A stretch of 45,510 bases of DNA from a virus (taxonomy: Duplodnaviria > Heunggongvirae > Uroviricota > Caudoviricetes), in IMG/VR virus record IMGVR_UViG_2778261177_000004, positions 1-45,510 of that record; one strand, given 5' to 3'. Of this stretch, positions 1-11,400 are shown piece by piece. Under the pieces are notes generated by a model that ran no database searches, was not told the DNA's origin, and saw only the letters and a program-made list of their open reading frames with translations. Positions within the stretch are counted from its first letter, which is position 1. Every line of letters begins with the position of its first letter. A program made the translations under genes and the position numbers.

Positions 1-266
1 AACGTTCTCATGATGAACTGGTAGCTGACGCTGAACAGAAAAAACAGTCGCTGATTGATACCGCAATGGCTTCCATTAGTTTTATTCAACTGAAATTACA
101 GGCCGGGCGGAATCTTACGCAGGCTGAAACCACCCGACTTAACACTGTGATGGATTATATCGATGAACTGAATGCTCTTGATTTTACTGGCATTGCAGAC
201 AATATAGACGTTGATGCGATTGTCTGGCCCACAATTCCCGACGAAGACAAAAACGTTGAAATGTGA
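1..266 (+). CDS. tail fiber assembly protein, C-terminal fragment (5'-partial; alternative U'-like copy)
   Basis: ORF is open from the window edge (frame of nt 3) to the stop at 264-266. Its C-terminus (...DVDAIVWPTIP) parallels the C-terminus (...DADISWPEMP) of the convergent Tfa at 485-907. A hairpin plus T-run follows. Confidence 0.5.
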   Translation, partial: RSHDELVADAEQKKQSLIDTAMASISFIQLKLQAGRNLTQAETTRLNTVMDYIDELNALDFTGIADNIDVDAIVWPTIPDEDKNVEM

Positions 267-484: not shown

Positions 485-907
485 TTATGCAGGCATCTCA
501 GGCCATGAGATATCTGCATCAACAGAAGTGTCAACTCTATTAAGAAGAACTCTATACCTCTTTAACTTTGTCAACATTTCTATTTCCTCATCAGTGGCAA
601 TATCCATATCAACAGCATCCTGAAGCGTTGATATTTTTATGCTCACATCATTAATAAGACTACTTTTGGTGTTTTCAGCAATGCTGACTCTATCCTCTAA
701 GCTCATAGGTTGTGGGTCAGATAACATTGGATAACCATCGCCATTTGCAATTATTATTTTCCCATTGCCATACCCTGATAACAATTCATCATATAAGTCA
801 TCAGGTATATGTACAGCATCTGACGGCCATGAACCGTTTTTATCGTAATCTTCTTTTAGTCTATCGTCGTAGAAACCACCAGTATCTTTGCTGTAATACT
901 TTGCCAT
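485..907 (-). CDS. tail fiber assembly protein (Tfa / P1 U-like chaperone)
   Basis: 140-aa ORF directly downstream of the tail fiber gene. N-terminus MAKYYSKDTGGFYDD and C-terminus ...LLNRVDTSVDADISWPEMPA are typical of Tfa-family chaperones, and the position matches. Confidence 0.7.
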   Translation of the reverse strand: MAKYYSKDTGGFYDDRLKEDYDKNGSWPSDAVHIPDDLYDELLSGYGNGKIIIANGDGYPMLSDPQPMSLEDRVSIAENTKSSLINDVSIKISTLQDAVDMDIATDEEIEMLTKLKRYRVLLNRVDTSVDADISWPEMPA

Positions 908-938: not shown

Positions 939-3900
939 TTAATACCCATAAGCAACATACTGTGCATATACTTTATCAGTGGAGCTACTTTTTACTGTAA
1001 AACCAGTGGCTGAGTTGTTGTATGTATAAAGAATTGCATTAACAGCATTCCCGCTATTAGGTGAAATCACAACTACCGCACACGCCTCAGGAAAAGCAGT
1101 CGGAAATTTAACTACGCTTCCTGGAGTAACAGCCGCTATAATACCCCACTGCATCATCACCTTAGTTGATGTATCCTTATGCCATCCATGAATGTTGGCA
1201 TATGCTGTGTTTTTAGCCTGATATTTCGTGTTGAAATTACTATAGTTACCAGGGGTAATCTGACCAGCGGCAGATAAATTCCCCATAACCCTTACATGGC
1301 CATCAGCACGTCCTAATTCTACGCGACCATCACCGCCATCTATCTTTAATGGAGTGTAAACGACATCACCATTAACATTTTGCCCAGTGGTTGATATCTG
1401 GAAACTATATCCAGTATTAGTTATTAGGAATCCATAGTTATTATTATAAGTTAGGCGTATAGCATTTTGGCTGCTGGATATAATTTCACCGGTAACAGTA
1501 CCACCTGTTGTTGGTAACGCACCAACATGACTTGCCGTTAATGTGATATCTGCAGAACCATCAAAAGCCACGCCACTTATTTTTCTGGCAGTTTTTAACT
1601 TTGTAGCTGTAGCTGCATTGCCACTTGTATTTTGATTCCCGGCAATATTAACGCCCGGAAGATTGATGTTTGCTGAACCATCAAACGAAACCCCGCCTAT
1701 TGTGCGTGCTGTTTGCAGTTTTGTGGCAGTTGCAGCATTGCCGGTAGTGCTCTGATTGCCTGTTTTATTCACGCCCGGCAGGTCGATGTTTGCGGTGCCA
1801 TTAAATGAAACGCCACCAATGGTTCTTGCCGTTTGTAATTTCGTTGCAGACGCCGCGTTTCCAGTTGTGTTCTGGTTGCCTGTTGTATTTACACCAGGGA
1901 TGGAATCCTTCGATGTGTAGACCTGCGCCCACTCAGACCATGCAGCATCTGTTGAATCCCTGCGAGAGCGAATGAAAGCCGGTGCATGAGCACCACTAGT
2001 CCCACTCCAGCCAATGAGCAGCTCACCTTCACCAACGGCAGTAGATCCCTTCAGGTGAAGTAGATTCCCGTAAGTCGTGGGGTAACCATTGTTGTACACC
2101 TCATACATCTGCAATCCAGTGGTAGCACCTTGCGTTGTGCTGGTAAGCGCAGTAACACGCCCTCTGGACGTAATTGTTGGTATCGAAATGTTCGCAGAAC
2201 CATCAAACTTAACACCGTTGATTGTGCGGGCTGTTTGCAGTTTTGTAGCGGTTGCAGCATTACCTGTTGTGTTCTGGTTACCGGCAATGTTCACACCCGG
2301 CAGGTTGATATTGGCGGTGCCATCAAATGCCACCCCGCCGATTGTGCGTGCCGTCTGAAGTTTCGTTGCGGTTGCAGCATTACCGGTTGTGCTCTGATTA
2401 CCTGTTTTATTTACGCCTGGAAGATCGATATTGGCACTACCATCGAATGACACTCCGCCTATTGTGCGTGCTGTTTGCAGTTTTGTGGCAGTTGCAGCAT
2501 TGCCGGTAGTGCTCTGATTGCCTGTTTTATTCACGCCCGGCAGGTCGATGTTTGCGGTGCCATTAAATGAAACGCCACCAATGGTTCTTGCCGTTTGTAA
2601 TTTCGTTGCAGACGCCGCGTTTCCAGTTGTGTTCTGGTTGCCTGTTGTATTTACACCAGGGATGGAATCCTTCGATGTGTAGACCTGCGCCCACTCAGAC
2701 CATGCAGCATCTGTTGAATCCCTGCGAGAGCGAATGAAAGCCGGTGCATGAGCACCACTAGTCCCACTCCAGCCAATGAGCAGCTCACCTTCACCAACGG
2801 CAGTAGATCCCTTCAGGTGAAGTAGATTCCCGTAAGTCGTGGGGTAACCATTGTTGTACACCTCATACATCTGCAATCCAGTGGTAGCACCTTGCGTTGT
2901 GCTGGTAAGCGCAGTAACACGCCCTCTGGACGTAATTGTTGGTATCGAAATGTTCGCAGAACCATCAAACTTAACACCGTTGATTGTGCGGGCTGTTTGC
3001 AGTTTTGTAGCGGTTGCAGCATTACCTGTTGTGTTCTGGTTACCGGCAATGTTCACACCCGGCAGGTTGATATTAGCGGTGCCATCAAACGCCACTCCGC
3101 CAATTGTGCGTGCCGTTTGAAGTTTCGTTGCGGTTGCAGCATTGCCAGTAGTGCTCTGATTACCTGTTTTATTAACGCCCGGCAGGTCGATATTGGCGGT
3201 GCCATCAAATGCCACCCCGCCGATTGTGCGGGCTGTCTGAAGTTTCGTTGCGGTTGCGGCATTGCCGCTTGTGTTCTGGTTACCAGCAACGTTCACGCCT
3301 GGCAGGTTGATATCTGCCGAACCGTCAAATGCCACCCCGCCGATCTTGCGAGACGCCTGAAGTTTCGTTGCGGTTGCAGCATTACCGGTTGTGCTCTGAT
3401 TGCCTGCTTTATTCACGCCCGGCAGGTCGATATTGGCGGTGCCATCAAATGACACTCCGCCGATCGTTCGAGCTGTCTTGAGCTTTGTGGCAGTATCGGC
3501 GTTCCCGGTCAGCGTACCAGTAATCCCACCGCCAACTTTTACGCCGTTACCGATGGACACCAACCCAGTTCTTAAGTTTATAGAAAATGGTCTTAATGGC
3601 CCGATGTCACCATTTTCACCCTCCCCTTCATTTGTCGGGATAAGATGAAGATATTCCTCGGATCTCCTGAAGATAAGGCCAAAGGCCTGGTTAAATATTC
3701 GAAGGGCATTTATTGTGCCAATTTTTAGCTGCCCCCCCATTGTGTCGCCAGAACGCTGAACTGCGTTACCAGCTTGAGAAGCAATATCCGTTAAGCCAAG
3801 ATCTTCAGGGGTAAGAGTAATATCTGCCGAACCGTCAAATGCCACCCCGTTAATCTTTCTGGCTGTTTTTAATTTCGTCGCGGTATCGGCGTTCCCGGTC

Positions 3901-5210
3901 AGCGTACCAGTGATCCCCGCGCTGAAAGTCTGGCGTGCATTCCATGTGTTAGCCGTGCTCAACAGGGGGATTTTTTCACCGCTGGTACCGAGTTCTCTTA
4001 AACCAAGGTATTGGATAACAGCCAGAGTGCTTGTTTTAGCCAGAATATCGCGACCGACTGACGTTAAATCAGTCTGGGCTACAGTGTCTGTTCCGGTAAA
4101 GTACGGTAATTTATTTGCTCCCGTCGCCAGGCCAGCGAGCGCGGTTAAGGTTGCGTCGAGAGGCTGCTTACCTGCCAGGGCATTTGTCATTGTAGTCGCA
4201 AAGTTCGGGTCATTGCCCAGTGCTGCGGCAAGCTCATTCAGGGTATCAAGAGCTTCTGGTGATGAGCCGACCAATGCAGAAATAGCGGCACGAACATAAG
4301 CGGTTGTTGCAATCTGAGTGTTGTTCGTACCTTGTGACGCCGTAGGAGCTGTTGGAACCCCCGTAAATGCCGGGCTTAATAACGGCGCTTTAAGAGCTAA
4401 CGCATCATTAATCGTCTGGCTAAACTGGGGATCATTGTTTATTGCATCTGCAATTTTTTTCAGCGTATCCAACGCTGAAGGAGAACCATCAATAAGGGCG
4501 GTTATTGCGGCCTGAACAAAGGCAGTGTTTGCGATTTGTGTACTGTTTGTACCTTGTTCCGGAGTTGGAGATTTAGGTATACCAATAAACTCCGGGCTAT
4601 CAACCGGAGCTTTTAGTTTGTTTAACGTGCTGATAGCAAGAGGTGTTGCGGCTTTATATTCTTCGTCACTATCCAAAGCACTGGAAAACTCAACACCAAC
4701 AGCACGATTAGCACGATATTCAGTGCTAATCATATCTGCGGTAACGGCTTGAGCATTGTCAGGCACGATCACGCGGCATAGCTCAATCTGGTTAGATGCT
4801 ATTTCCTCATCAACGAGAGCAATAATTCTCGCTGCGCTAATATCCGATGAACTATCTACCTGGCTGGTTTTCACTCCATGTTCGTAATTAGCTTCAAGAA
4901 CGATGATTGTCGTTACACCAGCTTCTACAGGAACAAGAACATCACTGACTTGCTGCACGGATATCTGACATTTACCCACGTCAATTGAAGCCGCCCCTCT
5001 TCCCTCTGTTTTCTCGGATGTAATCCGCACAAACAGACCATCCCCTGGCACCGGTTCAAACCCACAGTACACTCCGGGCAGAACGATATTTTTCATCTTC
5101 CTGTTTAGAGCTTCGGTGCTATACAGCTCAAAGTATTGCATGTCTGCAATTAGTGGAGCGGAAATGTCCGAAGATAAGGTGACAATATTCTTTACTTTAT
5201 CTGCGCACAT
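939..5210 (-). CDS. long tail fiber protein (P1 S-like), 1423 aa, with internal repeats
   Basis: Very long ORF with about 40-aa repeats ([28 protein letters not shown]...) typical of phage tail fibers. It sits between baseplate genes and the Tfa gene. Confidence 0.8.
1693..3074 (-). repeat. tandem direct duplication of a 762-bp unit (copy A about 1693-2312, copy B about 2455-3074), embedded in a roughly 120-bp periodic repeat array spanning about 1560-3500
   Basis: Same sequence found at offset 762 (e.g. ccggtagtgctctgattgcc at 1741 and 2503); identical overlapping ORFs at 2051..2287 and 2813..3049 in the supplied track; a 254-aa block occurs twice in the tail fiber protein. Confidence 0.85.
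3993..4018. other. candidate site-specific invertase crossover site (hix/gix/cix-like 26-bp site) inside the tail fiber gene
   Basis: ttctcttaaaccaaggtattggataa matches hixL (TTCTTGAAAACCAAGGTTTTTGATAA, recalled from memory) at 21 of 26 positions including the AAACCAAGGT core. One half-site, TTATCCAATACC, is close to the Din-family consensus. Confidence 0.4.
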
Positions 5211-5212
5211 AA

Positions 5213-5659
5213 TTATCCCTCGACCTGTTCAATGGTCATGAGCAAGCTGTATCGCTTACCTTTGAATAAGGTGTCCTGTTGAGTGCAAACAACCCCAAAA
5301 GCCTGATCCTCTGCATCTACGAGAACCAGCGTATTGAAATCGTAAGGTGTATCGTCCGGCATCGTTTCTTGTGGAAAAGCGGCATTAATCGTAATGACAC
5401 CATCGAGGCTGGAAAGAATGAGATTGGATTCAGCAAAATGCTGTGCATCACTTAACTTGAAGTCGAGCGGAATATCAGAAATAGTCCAGCCACCAGCACT
5501 ATTTACCGTCACAAGATCTGACTTGCACCAATAAGCCTTTGTCATAACAAAACGCTCACCCCTGCCGATTGCAGACTCTGCACGGCGAGAGTAGTAGTAA
5601 GAAAGGAGTTGCGCCTTGTAAATACTTGAATCGCTTTGAGATTTTAAAGTTTCAGCCAT
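5213..5659 (-). CDS. tail fiber-associated / baseplate protein (position of P1 R), function uncertain
   Basis: 148-aa ORF whose stop abuts the tail fiber start; assignment by synteny only. Confidence 0.4.
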
Positions 5660-5775: not shown

Positions 5776-6618
5776 CTAAGGTGCAAAATTATAATCCAGC
5801 GCCCAGGCGTCGAGCGGGAGTTCATCGAGATGAAGCACTCTTTCCGTCGTCCGGTCTGGCCTTCCTGCGAACTGGATGCCGTCTAATTGAATGATCGTAT
5901 CGCTAATAGATAGTTCATCGACCATCTCTTGCGTCGTGTACACCCCCTCAATAAAGGACACTTCCGCAGATAAGCAATTCAAGATCTCCGCCATTTCCGG
6001 CAATGTTGCGCTCAACTGGAAAGAAACACCATCAAACACGATATGCAATGGCAATAGCGGCGCAATAACCGTATCAAAATCTGCAAGTAGCTTCTGTACA
6101 GCAACGTCTCTGTCCTCACCATCATAAGCTCGATACAGCTTATTTTGGTTGACGACAACCAGCCCTCTGGATGTCAGAAAAAACTCACCATATTGTGCCT
6201 GAGCGGTCGGTATTTCATTTGCAGTCGCGAAGAATGAACCATAGGGATGTTTTTCTGTATCGACAGGCGCATACAAAGGTTCCCATGAGACGGGGATTGT
6301 GCCAAATTCACGCCAGAACGTTTGCTCTATCGGCCTTACTGTTCCTTTGAAGTGCACCTCATCCAGTCGTTGAGCTAATAGCATTGGCCTGCGTGTTTTG
6401 TCCGTTTCTGTGATAACAAAGAAACGACCATATTCAGCAATGCGAGTGTCCATATCCTCGCTTGCCATTGTGAAAAACGATTTACGGTTGCTTATTCGCG
6501 TGAGAATAGGTTCAACCGATTCATTCCACACGTCCTGAATCGTATCAACAAAGGCGGCCCACAATTTAGAATCCTGTTTAAATTGCGTCAGACGCTCTTT
6601 TAGCCAGTTATTCTGCAT
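5776..6618 (-). CDS. baseplate protein (gpI / P1 gene 16-like position)
   Basis: 280-aa ORF between the gpJ-like gene and the tail fiber region; assignment by synteny only. Confidence 0.4.
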   Translation of the reverse strand: MQNNWLKERLTQFKQDSKLWAAFVDTIQDVWNESVEPILTRISNRKSFFTMASEDMDTRIAEYGRFFVITETDKTRRPMLLAQRLDEVHFKGTVRPIEQTFWREFGTIPVSWEPLYAPVDTEKHPYGSFFATANEIPTAQAQYGEFFLTSRGLVVVNQNKLYRAYDGEDRDVAVQKLLADFDTVIAPLLPLHIVFDGVSFQLSATLPEMAEILNCLSAEVSFIEGVYTTQEMVDELSISDTIIQLDGIQFAGRPDRTTERVLHLDELPLDAWALDYNFAP

Positions 6619-6627
6619 TGTGACCTC

Positions 6628-8058
6628 TTACGGATAGGTTATGCTGAACGTTGATGATTCCACGTCCAGATAAACAAAATCATTAAAGTACACAGCTTCT
6701 TTCATGTTCTGCGTAGCCACGTCATAAGACAGGAACATATCCAGCGATTCGATTACTCGCCAGATATCTTTTACTTTGACCTGTGCATAACATTGCTGTG
6801 AGTCGTCATCACTCTGCAATAGCTGGCTAAATGACATGGAGTCTTTACCGAAGTTCTCCTCCAGTGCCGCTTTAATTGCAGTTAGCGCGTCATCCACCAG
6901 CACACTCTTTTTTACGATACCGGTAAATTTGATGTTGAACGGCTGTTCATTGGTGGCGACGTATTCGAACTTCTTATTCAGCTCATTAGGGATACTCTCA
7001 AGGGCTGATAATATCTCTGTTTTCAGAGCTTCCTGTGTTACGCCGGGCTTATGCCCACAAAAGAAAATTTTGTTGATATTACGCACATCAAAGCCCGTTA
7101 TTTTCTCCTGTAGCGCCTCCCCCCACACGTTAAGCCATGACGTGCCACTGACCACGTTCTGAATGAACTGGCGGTAATCACCGCCCCAAACAACCTGCTC
7201 ATCGTAGGCCACATAATACTGCGCCCTGTTTCGGGTTTCCTCGGTAGTTTCCATGCCACCACCGCCAGAAATGATCGAATCGGTTTTTACTTCCAGTGAT
7301 TCGACATACCCGGAGATGTTCCCTGCTGGTTCAAGTTTCTGGCCTTCAGCCAGCGTGTAATCACCGAGGCTTGCCATAATATCAATGCGTACCTGACTCC
7401 CTGCCGCTGGCATCATCCCCATTGATCCATCACCGAAGCGCACGCCGATCTGTTCTGTCGGCTTATAAACCAACACATAATGTTTACTGTTATCCCTGGA
7501 CATGCGGAATAGGGGGTTATGTGTCCATTTTTCCTCGACACCATTAGTTATCACGACAACTTCCAGGCTGGCGACTTCTGCTGTTAACTCACGGGAAAGT
7601 AACAACGTCAGGAATGGTGTTTCTTGCACCACGTCGAACGTTATGCTGACTGCTTCATGCTGTTTTACTTCTATTCCGGATACTGTTTCACCAGCAGGGA
7701 TAACAACACTACTGCTGGTTGCAATTGGTGTCTGGTCACTTGTCAGTAATTCAGCCCCTCCGGGTAGCGTAATATCCCTGTCGGTTTTGTTGGTGATGGA
7801 AACAGTGCCGTATGACGCATCGACCAAACGACCGACATAGCCACGGTCTTCCGCTGCCGCGAGAATACTTGCTCTGCGCGTCGCGGTGGAAATGAATCCT
7901 TCTGTAAGTGCACGGCTTGCAAATGTACGCGCAATATAAACAATCTGCGCGCCCAAAACGGACTGCATTTGAATAAACTGGCTGTTTACAAATCGCGCCC
8001 ACCAGGGGTTTTCGTTCAGCTTGGCATTAAACTTGTCCAGTAATTCGGTAATACTCAC
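6628..8058 (-). CDS. baseplate wedge protein (gpJ / gp6-like; P1 bplA position)
   Basis: 476-aa ORF immediately downstream of, and overlapping, the gp25-like gene, as in P2 W-J and T4 25-6 arrangements. Confidence 0.5.
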   Translation of the reverse strand: MSITELLDKFNAKLNENPWWARFVNSQFIQMQSVLGAQIVYIARTFASRALTEGFISTATRRASILAAAEDRGYVGRLVDASYGTVSITNKTDRDITLPGGAELLTSDQTPIATSSSVVIPAGETVSGIEVKQHEAVSITFDVVQETPFLTLLLSRELTAEVASLEVVVITNGVEEKWTHNPLFRMSRDNSKHYVLVYKPTEQIGVRFGDGSMGMMPAAGSQVRIDIMASLGDYTLAEGQKLEPAGNISGYVESLEVKTDSIISGGGGMETTEETRNRAQYYVAYDEQVVWGGDYRQFIQNVVSGTSWLNVWGEALQEKITGFDVRNINKIFFCGHKPGVTQEALKTEILSALESIPNELNKKFEYVATNEQPFNIKFTGIVKKSVLVDDALTAIKAALEENFGKDSMSFSQLLQSDDDSQQCYAQVKVKDIWRVIESLDMFLSYDVATQNMKEAVYFNDFVYLDVESSTFSITYP

Positions 8059-8429
8059 GCTGTATCTCCGCTATCTTTCTGCATAACAACATTCACGGTG
8101 CCTCCTTTTGCCTGGAAGCTAATTAGTAACTGGTCTTCAGAGACAGTCGCGCAGCGGATCGCCTGGAGTCCAAGCCCTGGTAAGTCCTGCTGTAGCTTCG
8201 TCATCATTCGCGCTTCAATCGCCACTTCAACAATGTGTGACGTATCAGAACCGAAGGGTTCGTGTTTGAACTCCTCCATCGGATTCCCCCATGACGGCAA
8301 TCCGTAAACGCTGCCATTTGGTGTCCGTAGCCATTCATCGAGTCGGGCTATCCAGGCGTTTGTGTCGCCTTCAGCGATCACCACCCCGCTCTCGTTTGTC
8401 TGAAGGCGGGCATCAATCTCATAAAGCAT
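8055..8429 (-). CDS. baseplate wedge subunit, GPW/gp25-like
   Basis: 124-aa protein with the motif WLRTPNGSVYGLPSWGN, which resembles the conserved LRTPxGSR...YGS core of the GPW/gp25 family. Confidence 0.55.
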   Translation of the reverse strand: MLYEIDARLQTNESGVVIAEGDTNAWIARLDEWLRTPNGSVYGLPSWGNPMEEFKHEPFGSDTSHIVEVAIEARMMTKLQQDLPGLGLQAIRCATVSEDQLLISFQAKGGTVNVVMQKDSGDTA

Positions 8430-8434
8430 CGGTC

Positions 8435-11400
8435 TTAATCCTCCAGTAATTTGTCAAGAGATGGGTCATTGATAGTCGTGCTGGCACGCTGACGAGGTTG
8501 TGGTTGTGATGTGTTCACAACTTTGTCCTGATCGCCTTTGCGGTTGTCTTTGCTTACGCCAAGAATCTCTTTGAGAACGGAATAAACGTTCTCCAGTGCT
8601 TTCAACATAGCCGGATCGTTATTTGCGGTATCTGTTGTTAGCATCTGCCTTATTCCGCTTCGTGCGAGGTCTGTGACGGTTGGTAGCTGAGGAGGCATTG
8701 CAAGGAACGGTTCTTTAGCAGCCACGCCCGAAGCAAACAGGCTTTGATTGATTGCGCCAGTCGTGTCCCTGATCGTATCCGCCGTTTTCTGTATGCCACC
8801 ATTCAGCCAGCCGCCAACACTTCTTGTTAACGGACTAATAGCGCGAGCAACATCGGTATTCTGTCCAGAGGACTGCAATACAAAGTCATTTAACATTCCG
8901 GTGCTATCGATACCGCCAACAAGTCGCGAGAGGTTATCTCCAACGGCGGGGAGGACGGCGGAGCCTACCTGTTTAAGCCCTGACACCGTTGAATCAAATA
9001 GCGAGCCAAAGAAGCCCCTGTCCTCACCTTCAACCACCTTGTAGCCGTTGTCGTAAATCTGCACACCCGCCGGTGTCGATGTGGCACGCTTCCCGCTGAT
9101 GGTTGCCGGACTCTCCGGAAGCAGGTCAATGGTTTCTGTATCGCGGTTAACGTTGCGCTTTTGCTGTATAGCCGTAGTGATATCGGCGATCTGTTCCGCC
9201 TTCTGGAAACTAAAGTTTTTGCCCGTTGCTCTGGATATTTTTTCAACAAGGAACTTATCCAATTGCTTGGCTTTTGCTGCTAACGAGGACATCTCTTCCG
9301 GAGAACTGACAGGGCCGAGATTTAGCCCCATATTGGGATCTCCCCCAACTATCCCGGCGATGACGCCCCCAACACCGTCTGCACTCATTAACCGATCCGT
9401 CAATCCGGCTGCGGCGGAAGAGTTGCCACTAGCTTTCGCGTGGCTGATCGCCTGGGCATTTTCCTGTTGAGCCGCCTTCGGTTTTTTAGCTGCCTGTGCG
9501 TGTTGAACCACATCAGTAGGGGTAGGCATTACAGCCTGGGCTACGCTTGACGCAGGAATAGCAGAAGATGAGCCGTTGGCGTATTTGACTTTGCTACCGA
9601 CACTATATTGGGAGTTGCGAGCGATTAGAGGACCGCCCTTTTCCTTCTGGATTTTATTAATGTGTTCCAGCGTTTCATCATTGAATTGCCCTTCCCAACG
9701 CCCAGTTTTAGCGTTGAATGAACCAAGAGCTGTTTTGATGAAATTGTTGTTAACCGCCGGGTTCCCCCCCTCCTTCGTCGCAATAGCGCGAACAAGGTGC
9801 GTCATAACTTCAGGGTTACTAACGTCTATTTTATCGTTGGGGGATACCCCTAGATATTTGCTGACGTTTTCAATGTACTGATTGGTGTTGTTCTCTGTTG
9901 GTGGTGCCCATTTTGAAATGATGCTGGATACTGTTTGCAGCTTCTGATACCCGGCGGCAGCACTTGTACCGTTGTAATAACTCGATACCTGGTTTGCCAA
10001 TGCCCGAATCCCTTCTTCGGGCGTATTAAACCGCGCAAAACGCTGTTCGCCTTTCGCGTTCGGCGCTTCCAGTACCGCCCCCTCCTGATTTGCAAAAACC
10101 AGGTTCCCCAGGTTGTTATTCCGGTAATTCCTGTTCTTGGCGTTGCTTCCGCCTATATTCAGATCAGCCGTTATTGTATTTTTTTCAGGCGCTTTAAATT
10201 CGTCTGGCGATTTGTAGCCGTGTTCACCCACGCCATCCTCACCTCTGCGCCCGCCCTGTAGCTGTCGGGCCAGATCATTAATTGCGGCTACCGTTTGCTT
10301 GGTGCCATCTTCAACGGCTTTCTTAACCTGCGCAGTGCCTTCGCTGCTTGATGAGAACGATTCTTTTAGGCTGCTGAATGCGTTCTTCGACGCGTCGATA
10401 GAACTATTTATGCCGCGAGCGATATTGCTGGTATCAAGACTCTGAAGTTTTTGTCCGACACCTTCAAAGCCTAGCGCGGACATCCCCTCGCCAATGAGGT
10501 TAGCCGCTCCCGTCACCAGACCGCCCATATCCAGGACGTTAGCAGCGGCGTAGGCGCTCTTTTGCTGTGTTGTAACGTCCTGCCCTTCCTTCAGGTTATA
10601 AGTCGCCCTCTGCGCTTCTGTGTCGCTGTAGCCGTCTACGGCATCATAACCAACCATAGCCACCTGGCCGATGACTGGAATCGCCCTGAATCCGGCCCTT
10701 GCGGCAACACCTCCGGCAGCTTTGAGAGCCACTTTTCCAGCTTCTTTTTTCGCGATGTTTTCACCAGTGGCAACGGCAACCTTACCCGCCTCTTTCCTGG
10801 TAAGGCTTTCCCCAGCGGAAGTTGCCGCTTTACCAGCGTCTTTCCCTGCCGCTCCACCAGCCGCCGTTTTGGCTACGCTTTCTTCAGTGACCTTACCTGC
10901 TCTGGTTTTAACTGAAGATTTATCACCCGATGATTTTGGTGAGGTACTACCCTCGTTCCCACCAGCATTTTTTGTCCGATTTTTTTCCTCGCCCGCACTG
11001 TTGTTTTTGCCTGGCTGATTTTTTTTCCCCTCTTTGCCTTCCTGACTCCTGCCCGTCTCAGTAGGTTTGCTGGTGTTTTTTCCCTTCTTGCCCTTGTTTT
11101 CTTTACTGTCTCCAGTGCGGCCCGTGTTGCCACCACGTGCACTGCTACGACCGCGTGTAGGGGATATTTTGGAACGTAATCTGCCACCGCCGAGGAGGTC
11201 GCTCAGTTTTAGCCCACTCTCCTGCGACTTTCGTAGTTTCCGGATCTCTTCGGATACAGTTTCCAGCTCATCAATTATCTGGCTGTCGTTGCGTTGAAGA
11301 ACTTTCGTTTGTTCTTCGATCGCACGTACAGATTTTTCTTTAACGGCTTCAGTAAATGCCTTTGCTGAACCGGGCGCGTTATCTGGAGTCTTCCTTTCAT

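Follow-up and report, generated by a model that had tools for sequence, protein, structure and literature searches.

The window analyzed here is a 45,510-nt stretch of DNA (positions 1 to 45,510 of the IMG/VR virus record IMGVR_UViG_2778261177_000004, Caudoviricetes), and close to its left end lies a long tail fiber gene in which a segment is repeated head-to-tail, in the same orientation, at an offset of 762 nt. Both copies are contained within a single uninterrupted open reading frame (ORF); the offset corresponds to 254 codons and the reading frame is preserved. A near-identical 762-bp tandem duplication had been proposed at this position from a sequence-only reading, and direct comparison confirms it: the two ranges that it had aligned (1699–2312 and 2461–3074) are identical at 614 of 614 nt, and the longest exact run at the 762-nt offset is 620 nt (1693–2312 = 2455–3074), with the outer bounds at 1693 and 3074 as originally noted. 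An exact repeat of 620 nt in 45.5 kb cannot be attributed to chance. The gene and the segments of the duplication are as follows, with R denoting 40-aa repeat units and G the 94-aa knob domains.

939–5210, minus strand: tail fiber gene, ortholog of P1/D6 gene S; intact ORF of 1423 aa, with matches to PHROG tail fiber families and synteny of gp16, R and U.
2455–3074, minus strand: exact copy B, upstream in the gene; runs from the last 15 nt of R4 through R5, G1 and R6 into the first 83 nt of R7.
1693–2312, minus strand: exact copy A, downstream in the gene; runs from the last 15 nt of R8 through R9, G2 and R10 into the first 83 nt of R11.
2313–2454, minus strand: junction that separates the copies, made up of the last 37 nt of R7 and first 105 nt of R8; 87% identical to 3075–3216.

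At the protein level the gene product is self-identical at an offset of 254 over 257 residues (aa 672–928 = aa 926–1182), and the exactly duplicated 254-aa block reported earlier is therefore correct. The remaining 142 nt of each period (2313–2454 and 3075–3216) contain 18 mismatches, and those falling within the exact protein repeat are necessarily synonymous. All 18 are confined to these 142 of 762 nt, a distribution with a probability of 7e-14 under uniform divergence, and the full 762-nt period is not a pristine duplication at the DNA level.

The 120-bp periodicity in which the duplication had been said to be nested is real, with Tandem Repeats Finder reporting period-120 arrays at 1646–1889, 2220–2651 and 2982–3478, and thirteen 40-aa units (R0–R12), anchored on the motif TGNAxTATKL, fit a common register that is interrupted by two 94-aa insertions. 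The insertions, G1 and G2, share 100% DNA identity. The duplicated unit thus consists of one knob and four repeats, in agreement with the initial description of a non-repeat segment together with four 40-aa repeats. Both ends of the exact run lie inside 120-nt R units, and the repeats that hold these ends are 82–92% alike. The protein is ordered as a constant N-terminal part, the inversion site cixR, R0, a 90-aa insert, R1–R5, G1, R6–R9, G2, R10–R12, and a C-terminal region, with the following coordinates.

3810–3929, minus strand: R0, an isolated first 40-aa unit, followed by the 90-aa non-repeat insert (3540–3809).
2940–3539, minus strand: R1–R5, five 120-nt (40-aa) units upstream of the first knob.
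2658–2939, minus strand: G1, the first 94-aa knob domain, from the translation and an AlphaFold model.
2178–2657, minus strand: R6–R9, four units between the knobs, of which R7 (2418–2537) is the hybrid junction unit.
1896–2177, minus strand: G2, the second knob domain.
1536–1895, minus strand: R10–R12, three units beyond the second knob.
942–1160, minus strand: Gp53-like_C domain (Pfam PF21882, E = 1.7e-9), aa 1351–1423, the presumed distal tip; untouched by the duplication.

Prediction of the structure of the repeat unit, which had been proposed as a check, gave a divided result. When R5-G-R6 was modeled in AlphaFold from 28 diverse homologous segments, G was predicted with confidence (pLDDT 85–94 over residues 41–130), whereas the R flanks were poor (pLDDT 44–70) and we claim no fold for the repeat. 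The best Foldseek fold matches of G are to the T4 gp34 fiber, although the E-values are weak (~6e-3) and a monomer was modeled for what is presumably a trimeric fiber; G looks like a shaft bead in a beads-on-a-string fiber. T4 gp34 (PDB 5nxh, 4uxg) is itself a trimeric shaft of repeated small domains, and relatives of the window gene carry Gp34_trimer inserts between R units, but neither G nor R has a sequence-level match to gp34 in a phmmer search of PDB sequences, and the Gp34_trimer domain (PF21446) is not found in the window protein. R and G match no Pfam or NCBIfam model. A single sub-threshold match to Phage_fiber_2 (PF03406; 19.5 bits against a cut-off of 22) lies at aa 174–198, outside the R array, with none on the R-G block, and an NCBIfam match to an NAD(P)-binding model (22 bits against a cut-off of 204) was rejected as noise. 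The tip region containing Gp53-like_C has a weak match to the R1 pyocin fiber 6cxb.

Outside the immediate relatives, the R-G-R module (window 1896–3059) shares 79% identity with a portion of a 'tail fiber repeat protein' from the jumbo phage vB_EcoM_Goslar (BFVD A0A482GGW0). Among predicted viral structures the module is also present, at 33–36% identity, in gp37 of the T4-like Acinetobacter phages Acj9 and 133, and the knob alone has matches in 651 representative protein clusters.

Single-copy versions of the gene, which were suggested as a test, are readily found. Five complete Escherichia coli plasmids match the whole gene at 92.3–92.6% identity over a span of 3510 nt, shorter by exactly 762 nt than the 4272-nt window gene, and encode a protein of 1169 aa with a single G; an example is pPEC1013-2 (locus L001; WP_223370791.1, 1169 aa), and a metagenomic allele, P0024, encodes a 1130-aa single-copy protein. 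Two further loci, L008 and L010, carry the same knob allele as the window (97.2% identity in G) once. These single-copy E. coli phage-plasmid alleles are colinear with the window gene over its entire length at 92–97% identity and share its R and G modules, tip and chaperone, and differ by lacking exactly one 762-nt module of G and four repeats.

Lengths and architectures were drawn from the 120 best homologs, whose lengths form a ladder of 40-aa steps (835, 875, 915, 995, 1049, 1089, 1129, 1169 [L001] and 1209 aa). They have two to six R units before G and two to five after it; some lack G, and others have different inserts of 214–237 aa between R units that hold the T4 Gp34_trimer domain. The ladder and the varying numbers of R units indicate that the R array changes copy number routinely. 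In this set, two knobs are present only in the window gene, P0001 (separated by a period of G and four R units) and P0112 (G and two R units). P0112 (1467 aa) has two slightly diverged knobs at the G+2R spacing of 173–174 aa, and the more distant representative P0121 (675 aa) has two identical knobs one such period apart. These two show other registers of the same duplication process.

P0001 (1383 aa) is encoded at positions 6001–10152 of locus L003 (from the E. coli draft sequence JAFCYE010000009), and has the same G+4R tandem as the window, with a duplication of 762-nt period and one fewer upstream repeat. Its exact run is a clean 797 nt, corresponding to one full period plus 35 nt, as expected if unequal crossing-over took place where two R units are identical over 35 nt, and its right-hand boundary falls at the same place in the repeat unit as that of the window (83 nt into the unit). 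However, the knobs belong to different classes. Two classes of knob DNA alleles can be recognized, 80.1% identical to each other; the window knobs are 97.2% identical to those of single-copy L008 and L010, the L003 knobs are 97.5% identical to that of single-copy L001, and within each duplicated allele the two knob copies are 100% identical. Because the classes are 20% apart, each has single-copy relatives at ~97%, and the copies within each allele are identical, the simplest reading of these comparisons is that the window and L003 duplications were separate and recent events in two lineages. The register that they share is most simply read as the one that places the most similar R units on either side of the knob. 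A single ancestral duplication common to the window and L003 was judged less likely given the differences between the knob classes and the single-copy relatives of each.

The window allele does not have a single ancestry. R7 is a hybrid whose first 83 nt are those of R11 and whose remaining 37 nt belong to another unit. R8 shares 96.7% identity with its positional equivalent in L008 (L008.R3) and only 92% with the window's own R4, from which it differs at 9–10 synonymous positions, and R4 is 99% identical to a unit of L011. Over its first 720 nt the gene is 100% identical to L011, R2, R4, R5, R11 and R12 are 98–100% identical to that locus, and G and R6 are 96.7–97.2% identical to L008. As the DNA identity between the copies stops at 620 nt, and the ancestry of the junction differs from that of the upstream flank, the allele is a mosaic of at least two lineages. 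The synonymous differences between R8 and R4, together with an exact run shorter than the period, rule out a simple one-step duplication of the resident allele as the whole story. Either the duplication came first and replacement of the upstream repeats followed, or it was itself the outcome of an exchange between distinct alleles.

A 16-R-S-U gene order and the presence of a cixR site assign the gene, on sequence grounds, as the S-type tail fiber of a D6/P1-like phage-plasmid of E. coli. The flanking genes match Phage_P1_Gp16 (PF26903; a gp16-type tube/baseplate protein), Phage_P1_tail_fiber_R (PF26881) and Caudo_TAP (PF02413), and the PHROG matches agree, such that the original call of a tail fiber gene stands. 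The site was found by a pattern search with the annotated D6 and P1 cixR sequences. Because it is present, the duplication can be placed in the invertible part of the gene, with all sequence C-terminal of it, duplication included, constituting the variable Sv part. The neighboring features are listed here.

3996–4015, plus strand: inversion site of the cixR type, identical to P1 and D6 cixR at 20 of 20 positions, at codons 399–405 (IQYLGLR).
5213–5659, minus strand: R-like tail fiber assembly protein gene, upstream of S.
485–907, minus strand: tail fiber assembly chaperone, U-like (Caudo_TAP).
1–266, plus strand: second chaperone, U'-like (PF02413), a 3' fragment in the opposite orientation, cut by the contig end.

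The S genes of P1, P7 and D6 resemble the window gene in gene order, neighbors and the 20-nt cixR at IQYLGLR, and share 81–85% nucleotide identity with it over 13–49% of its length, around and downstream of the site. In P1 the reference S protein is 988 aa long and its annotated internal repeats (a0, a1, b1 and b2) lie in the constant part rather than in Sv, whereas the variable part in the window carries the array of thirteen 40-aa units and two knobs. The constant part of the window protein also has two 74-aa repeats (aa 200–347; approximately 4170–4610) with the pattern KAPxxSPxFxGxP...DPxFxxTxxxALA, to which the P1 elements b1 and b2 correspond in size and place; the second of these matches a solved tail collar fiber, 9d93 (E = 3e-10). 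A 25-kb query of the window backbone (5211–30000) is ~81% identical to D6 over 51% of its length and has no match to any other phage record at megablast level; the remainder of the window likewise has no megablast-level match to P1. The element belongs to a D6-like group of phage-plasmids with poor representation among named phages. In E. coli, almost every match to the fiber gene is on a plasmid of about 90–95 kb.

Of the invertible segment, only the U' fragment is present on the window before the contig ends. A cixR site within the fiber gene and a U' fragment on the opposite strand indicate that the contig breaks within a Cin-type invertible segment, with the partner site, Sv' and invertase on another contig. 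The closely related loci L008–L010 have the full S-U-U'-Sv'-invertase arrangement, which includes a resolvase/invertase. L001 (locus positions 5084–5546 and 8296–8315) and L003 retain cixR in S and lack annotation for U', Sv' or an invertase in the interval from U to the lysis genes, which suggests that fibers of this type are frozen in a single orientation; the L001 type differs from the window in having lost U', Sv' and cin. Positions 1–249 of the window have no counterpart in L001 or L003.

We consider it probable that this locus contains a genuine and recent in-frame tandem duplication of the 762-nt G+4R module, in the invertible part of an S-type fiber gene, generated by unequal recombination and accompanied by mosaicism. 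The sequence-only reading had offered either replication slippage or recombination as the cause; recombination fits better than slippage, with the ends lying within pre-existing 120-nt repeats and the 797-nt run in L003. In the proposed pathway, misaligned 120-nt R repeats on either side of the knob would undergo unequal homologous recombination, the partners being the third R unit upstream of G and the second one downstream, in an exchange between sister or concatemeric copies of the genome. The product would have the structure R0-X-R1..R5-G-R6..R9-G-R10..R12-tip, with X the 90-aa insert, as compared with R..R-G-RRR-tip in the relatives. At least one further recombination with a different allele would then have replaced the upstream repeats or the junction, and this would be why the DNA identity stops at 620 rather than at 762 nt. 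Given perfect direct repeats of 620 nt, the state should be unstable, with reversion to a single copy or further expansion expected through the same kind of exchange.

Several observations weigh against this interpretation. A fresh one-step unequal crossover predicts an exact run of at least 762 nt, as against the 620 nt observed, and the last 37 nt of R7 lack a close source among the loci examined, with the best match at 31 of 37 positions (at least six mismatches). None of 5426 complete E. coli genomes contains a colinear G-4R-G (query window 2078–2757, which joins the end of one knob, four R units and the start of the next). The window corresponds to one entire draft contig (NLOX01000033.1, assembly GCA_002230545.1), judged here from its assembled sequence, and all of the double-knob alleles of traced source (the window, L003 and P0112) come from draft assemblies.

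The draft origin raises the alternative that the duplication is an assembly artefact, in which the genome has one copy, or the reads are a mixture of two related fiber alleles, and a short-read assembler either threaded the repeat loop twice or followed a chimeric path through the 120-nt repeats. The region is rich in such repeats, with common exact runs of up to 45 nt, the contig ends 940 nt past the gene and within the invertible segment, and the patchwork of L011-like and L008-like pieces has the look of a chimera of two co-resident alleles. We nonetheless regard this as quite unlikely. The junction (2313–2454) is unique, its longest exact run in common with the rest of the window being 45 nt, and a 60-mer across it matches only once even at three mismatches. 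As it is unique sequence flanked on both sides by the repeat, reads carrying it must exist, and with 18 differences from its counterpart it is not something that a single-copy genome would yield. Moreover, the reading frame is kept exactly, and the rest of the 45.5-kb contig is continuous, which would be unexpected for two fiber-bearing elements that are 92–97% identical. The independent L003 assembly has the same kind of duplication in clean form. Confusion with an inverted Sv' copy was also rejected, on length: Sv' in the relatives is only about 202–207 aa, too short for much of a repeat array. A short-read assembly would not distinguish two copies from three.

An older duplication homogenized by gene conversion, through a recent tract of at least 620 nt over the R5-G-R6 core, is less likely still. 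It would accommodate both the 13% divergence of the junction, which would suggest an aged duplication, and the absence of differences in 620 nt beside 18 in 142 nt, which is the pattern of a conversion tract; the 762-nt period and the right-hand boundary common to L003 could then reflect one ancestral event. However, with single-copy alleles within 97% of each knob class and the classes 20% apart, it needs repeated losses and separate homogenization in each lineage, and the close matches of the differing flanks to different present-day alleles (R4 to L011 and R8 to L008, at 96.7–99%) point to allele exchange over slow divergence in place.

Import of a ready-made block, in which the second knob and its flanking repeats were acquired by double recombination with the fiber gene of another phage, is highly improbable: it would suit the distinct ancestry of R8 and the 3' end of R7 and the occurrence of the module in unrelated phages (as in the Goslar fiber, gp37 of the T4-like Acinetobacter phages, and the many clusters with the knob), but the donor core must equal the resident core over 620 nt and yet differ by 8–13% directly beside it, and searches turned up no donor of this kind: in complete E. 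coli genomes the junction is matched at 93% at best, and the exact 60-nt junction has no match in IMG/VR. Targeted variation of the type generated by diversity-generating retroelements was rejected, as the copies are identical over 620 nt and the 18 mismatches are mixed transitions and transversions that are not adenine-specific; no search for a reverse transcriptase was made.

With a genuine duplication by unequal recombination as the preferred reading, its most likely consequence is a shaft longer by one bead and four repeats, or 254 residues per chain, with two knobs; the baseplate-proximal constant part, the C-terminal tip and the chaperone would be unchanged. T4 gp34 has about 1289 aa for about 70 nm, and scaling from it would make the fiber longer by very roughly 10–15 nm. 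This gain in length, the recombination mechanism, and any effect that there may be on adsorption or reach are what we infer from the comparisons above.

There is a precedent in a different phage, Enterococcus phage EfV12-phi1, where 1.8-kb in-frame tandem duplications in a long tail fiber gene arose repeatedly during experimental coevolution (PMC6365445). As in the window, those duplications are in-frame, in the shaft and upstream of the distal binding region, and are recurrent with variable copy number (PMC6365445). They are unrelated in sequence, and differ in that selection by resistant hosts was observed and proof came from long reads and PCR (PMC6365445), whereas the window duplication is seen in an assembled contig. 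That phages exchange fiber segments at conserved motifs has been known for a long time (Tétart et al. 1998, as cited in PMC10879196). We found no description of this particular repeat-and-knob module in the literature.

A more ambitious proposal is that the knob and repeat module acts as a fast and reversible 'dial' of fiber length and avidity, with unequal recombination at a preferred R register adding and removing G+nR blocks in Sv. We regard this as unlikely. If it were true, selection would favor two-knob lineages where the host has a thicker O-antigen or capsule layer, or because G itself weakly binds glycans, and the identical-copy duplications that occur independently in at least three allele backgrounds would be snapshots of a continuing, selected copy-number polymorphism and not neutral accidents.

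Most likely, then, the feature is real and was correctly described at the outset. Duplication of this kind is ordinary for phage tail fiber genes and reveals no new mechanism; what is modestly new is the recurrence of a 762-nt period in two allele classes and its location in an invertible segment. The R repeat and the G knob are widespread and, with no Pfam or NCBIfam model to describe them, are worth defining as families. The comparison set (the 40-aa ladder, the mosaic alleles, and at least two independent duplications that share a period) may be useful for engineering P1-type fibers for DNA delivery and for studies of host-range evolution. If real, the duplication would be a clean natural case of a cassette-built fiber, in which a shaft of 40-aa repeats and interchangeable knobs changes its length and the receptor-binding tip remains constant.

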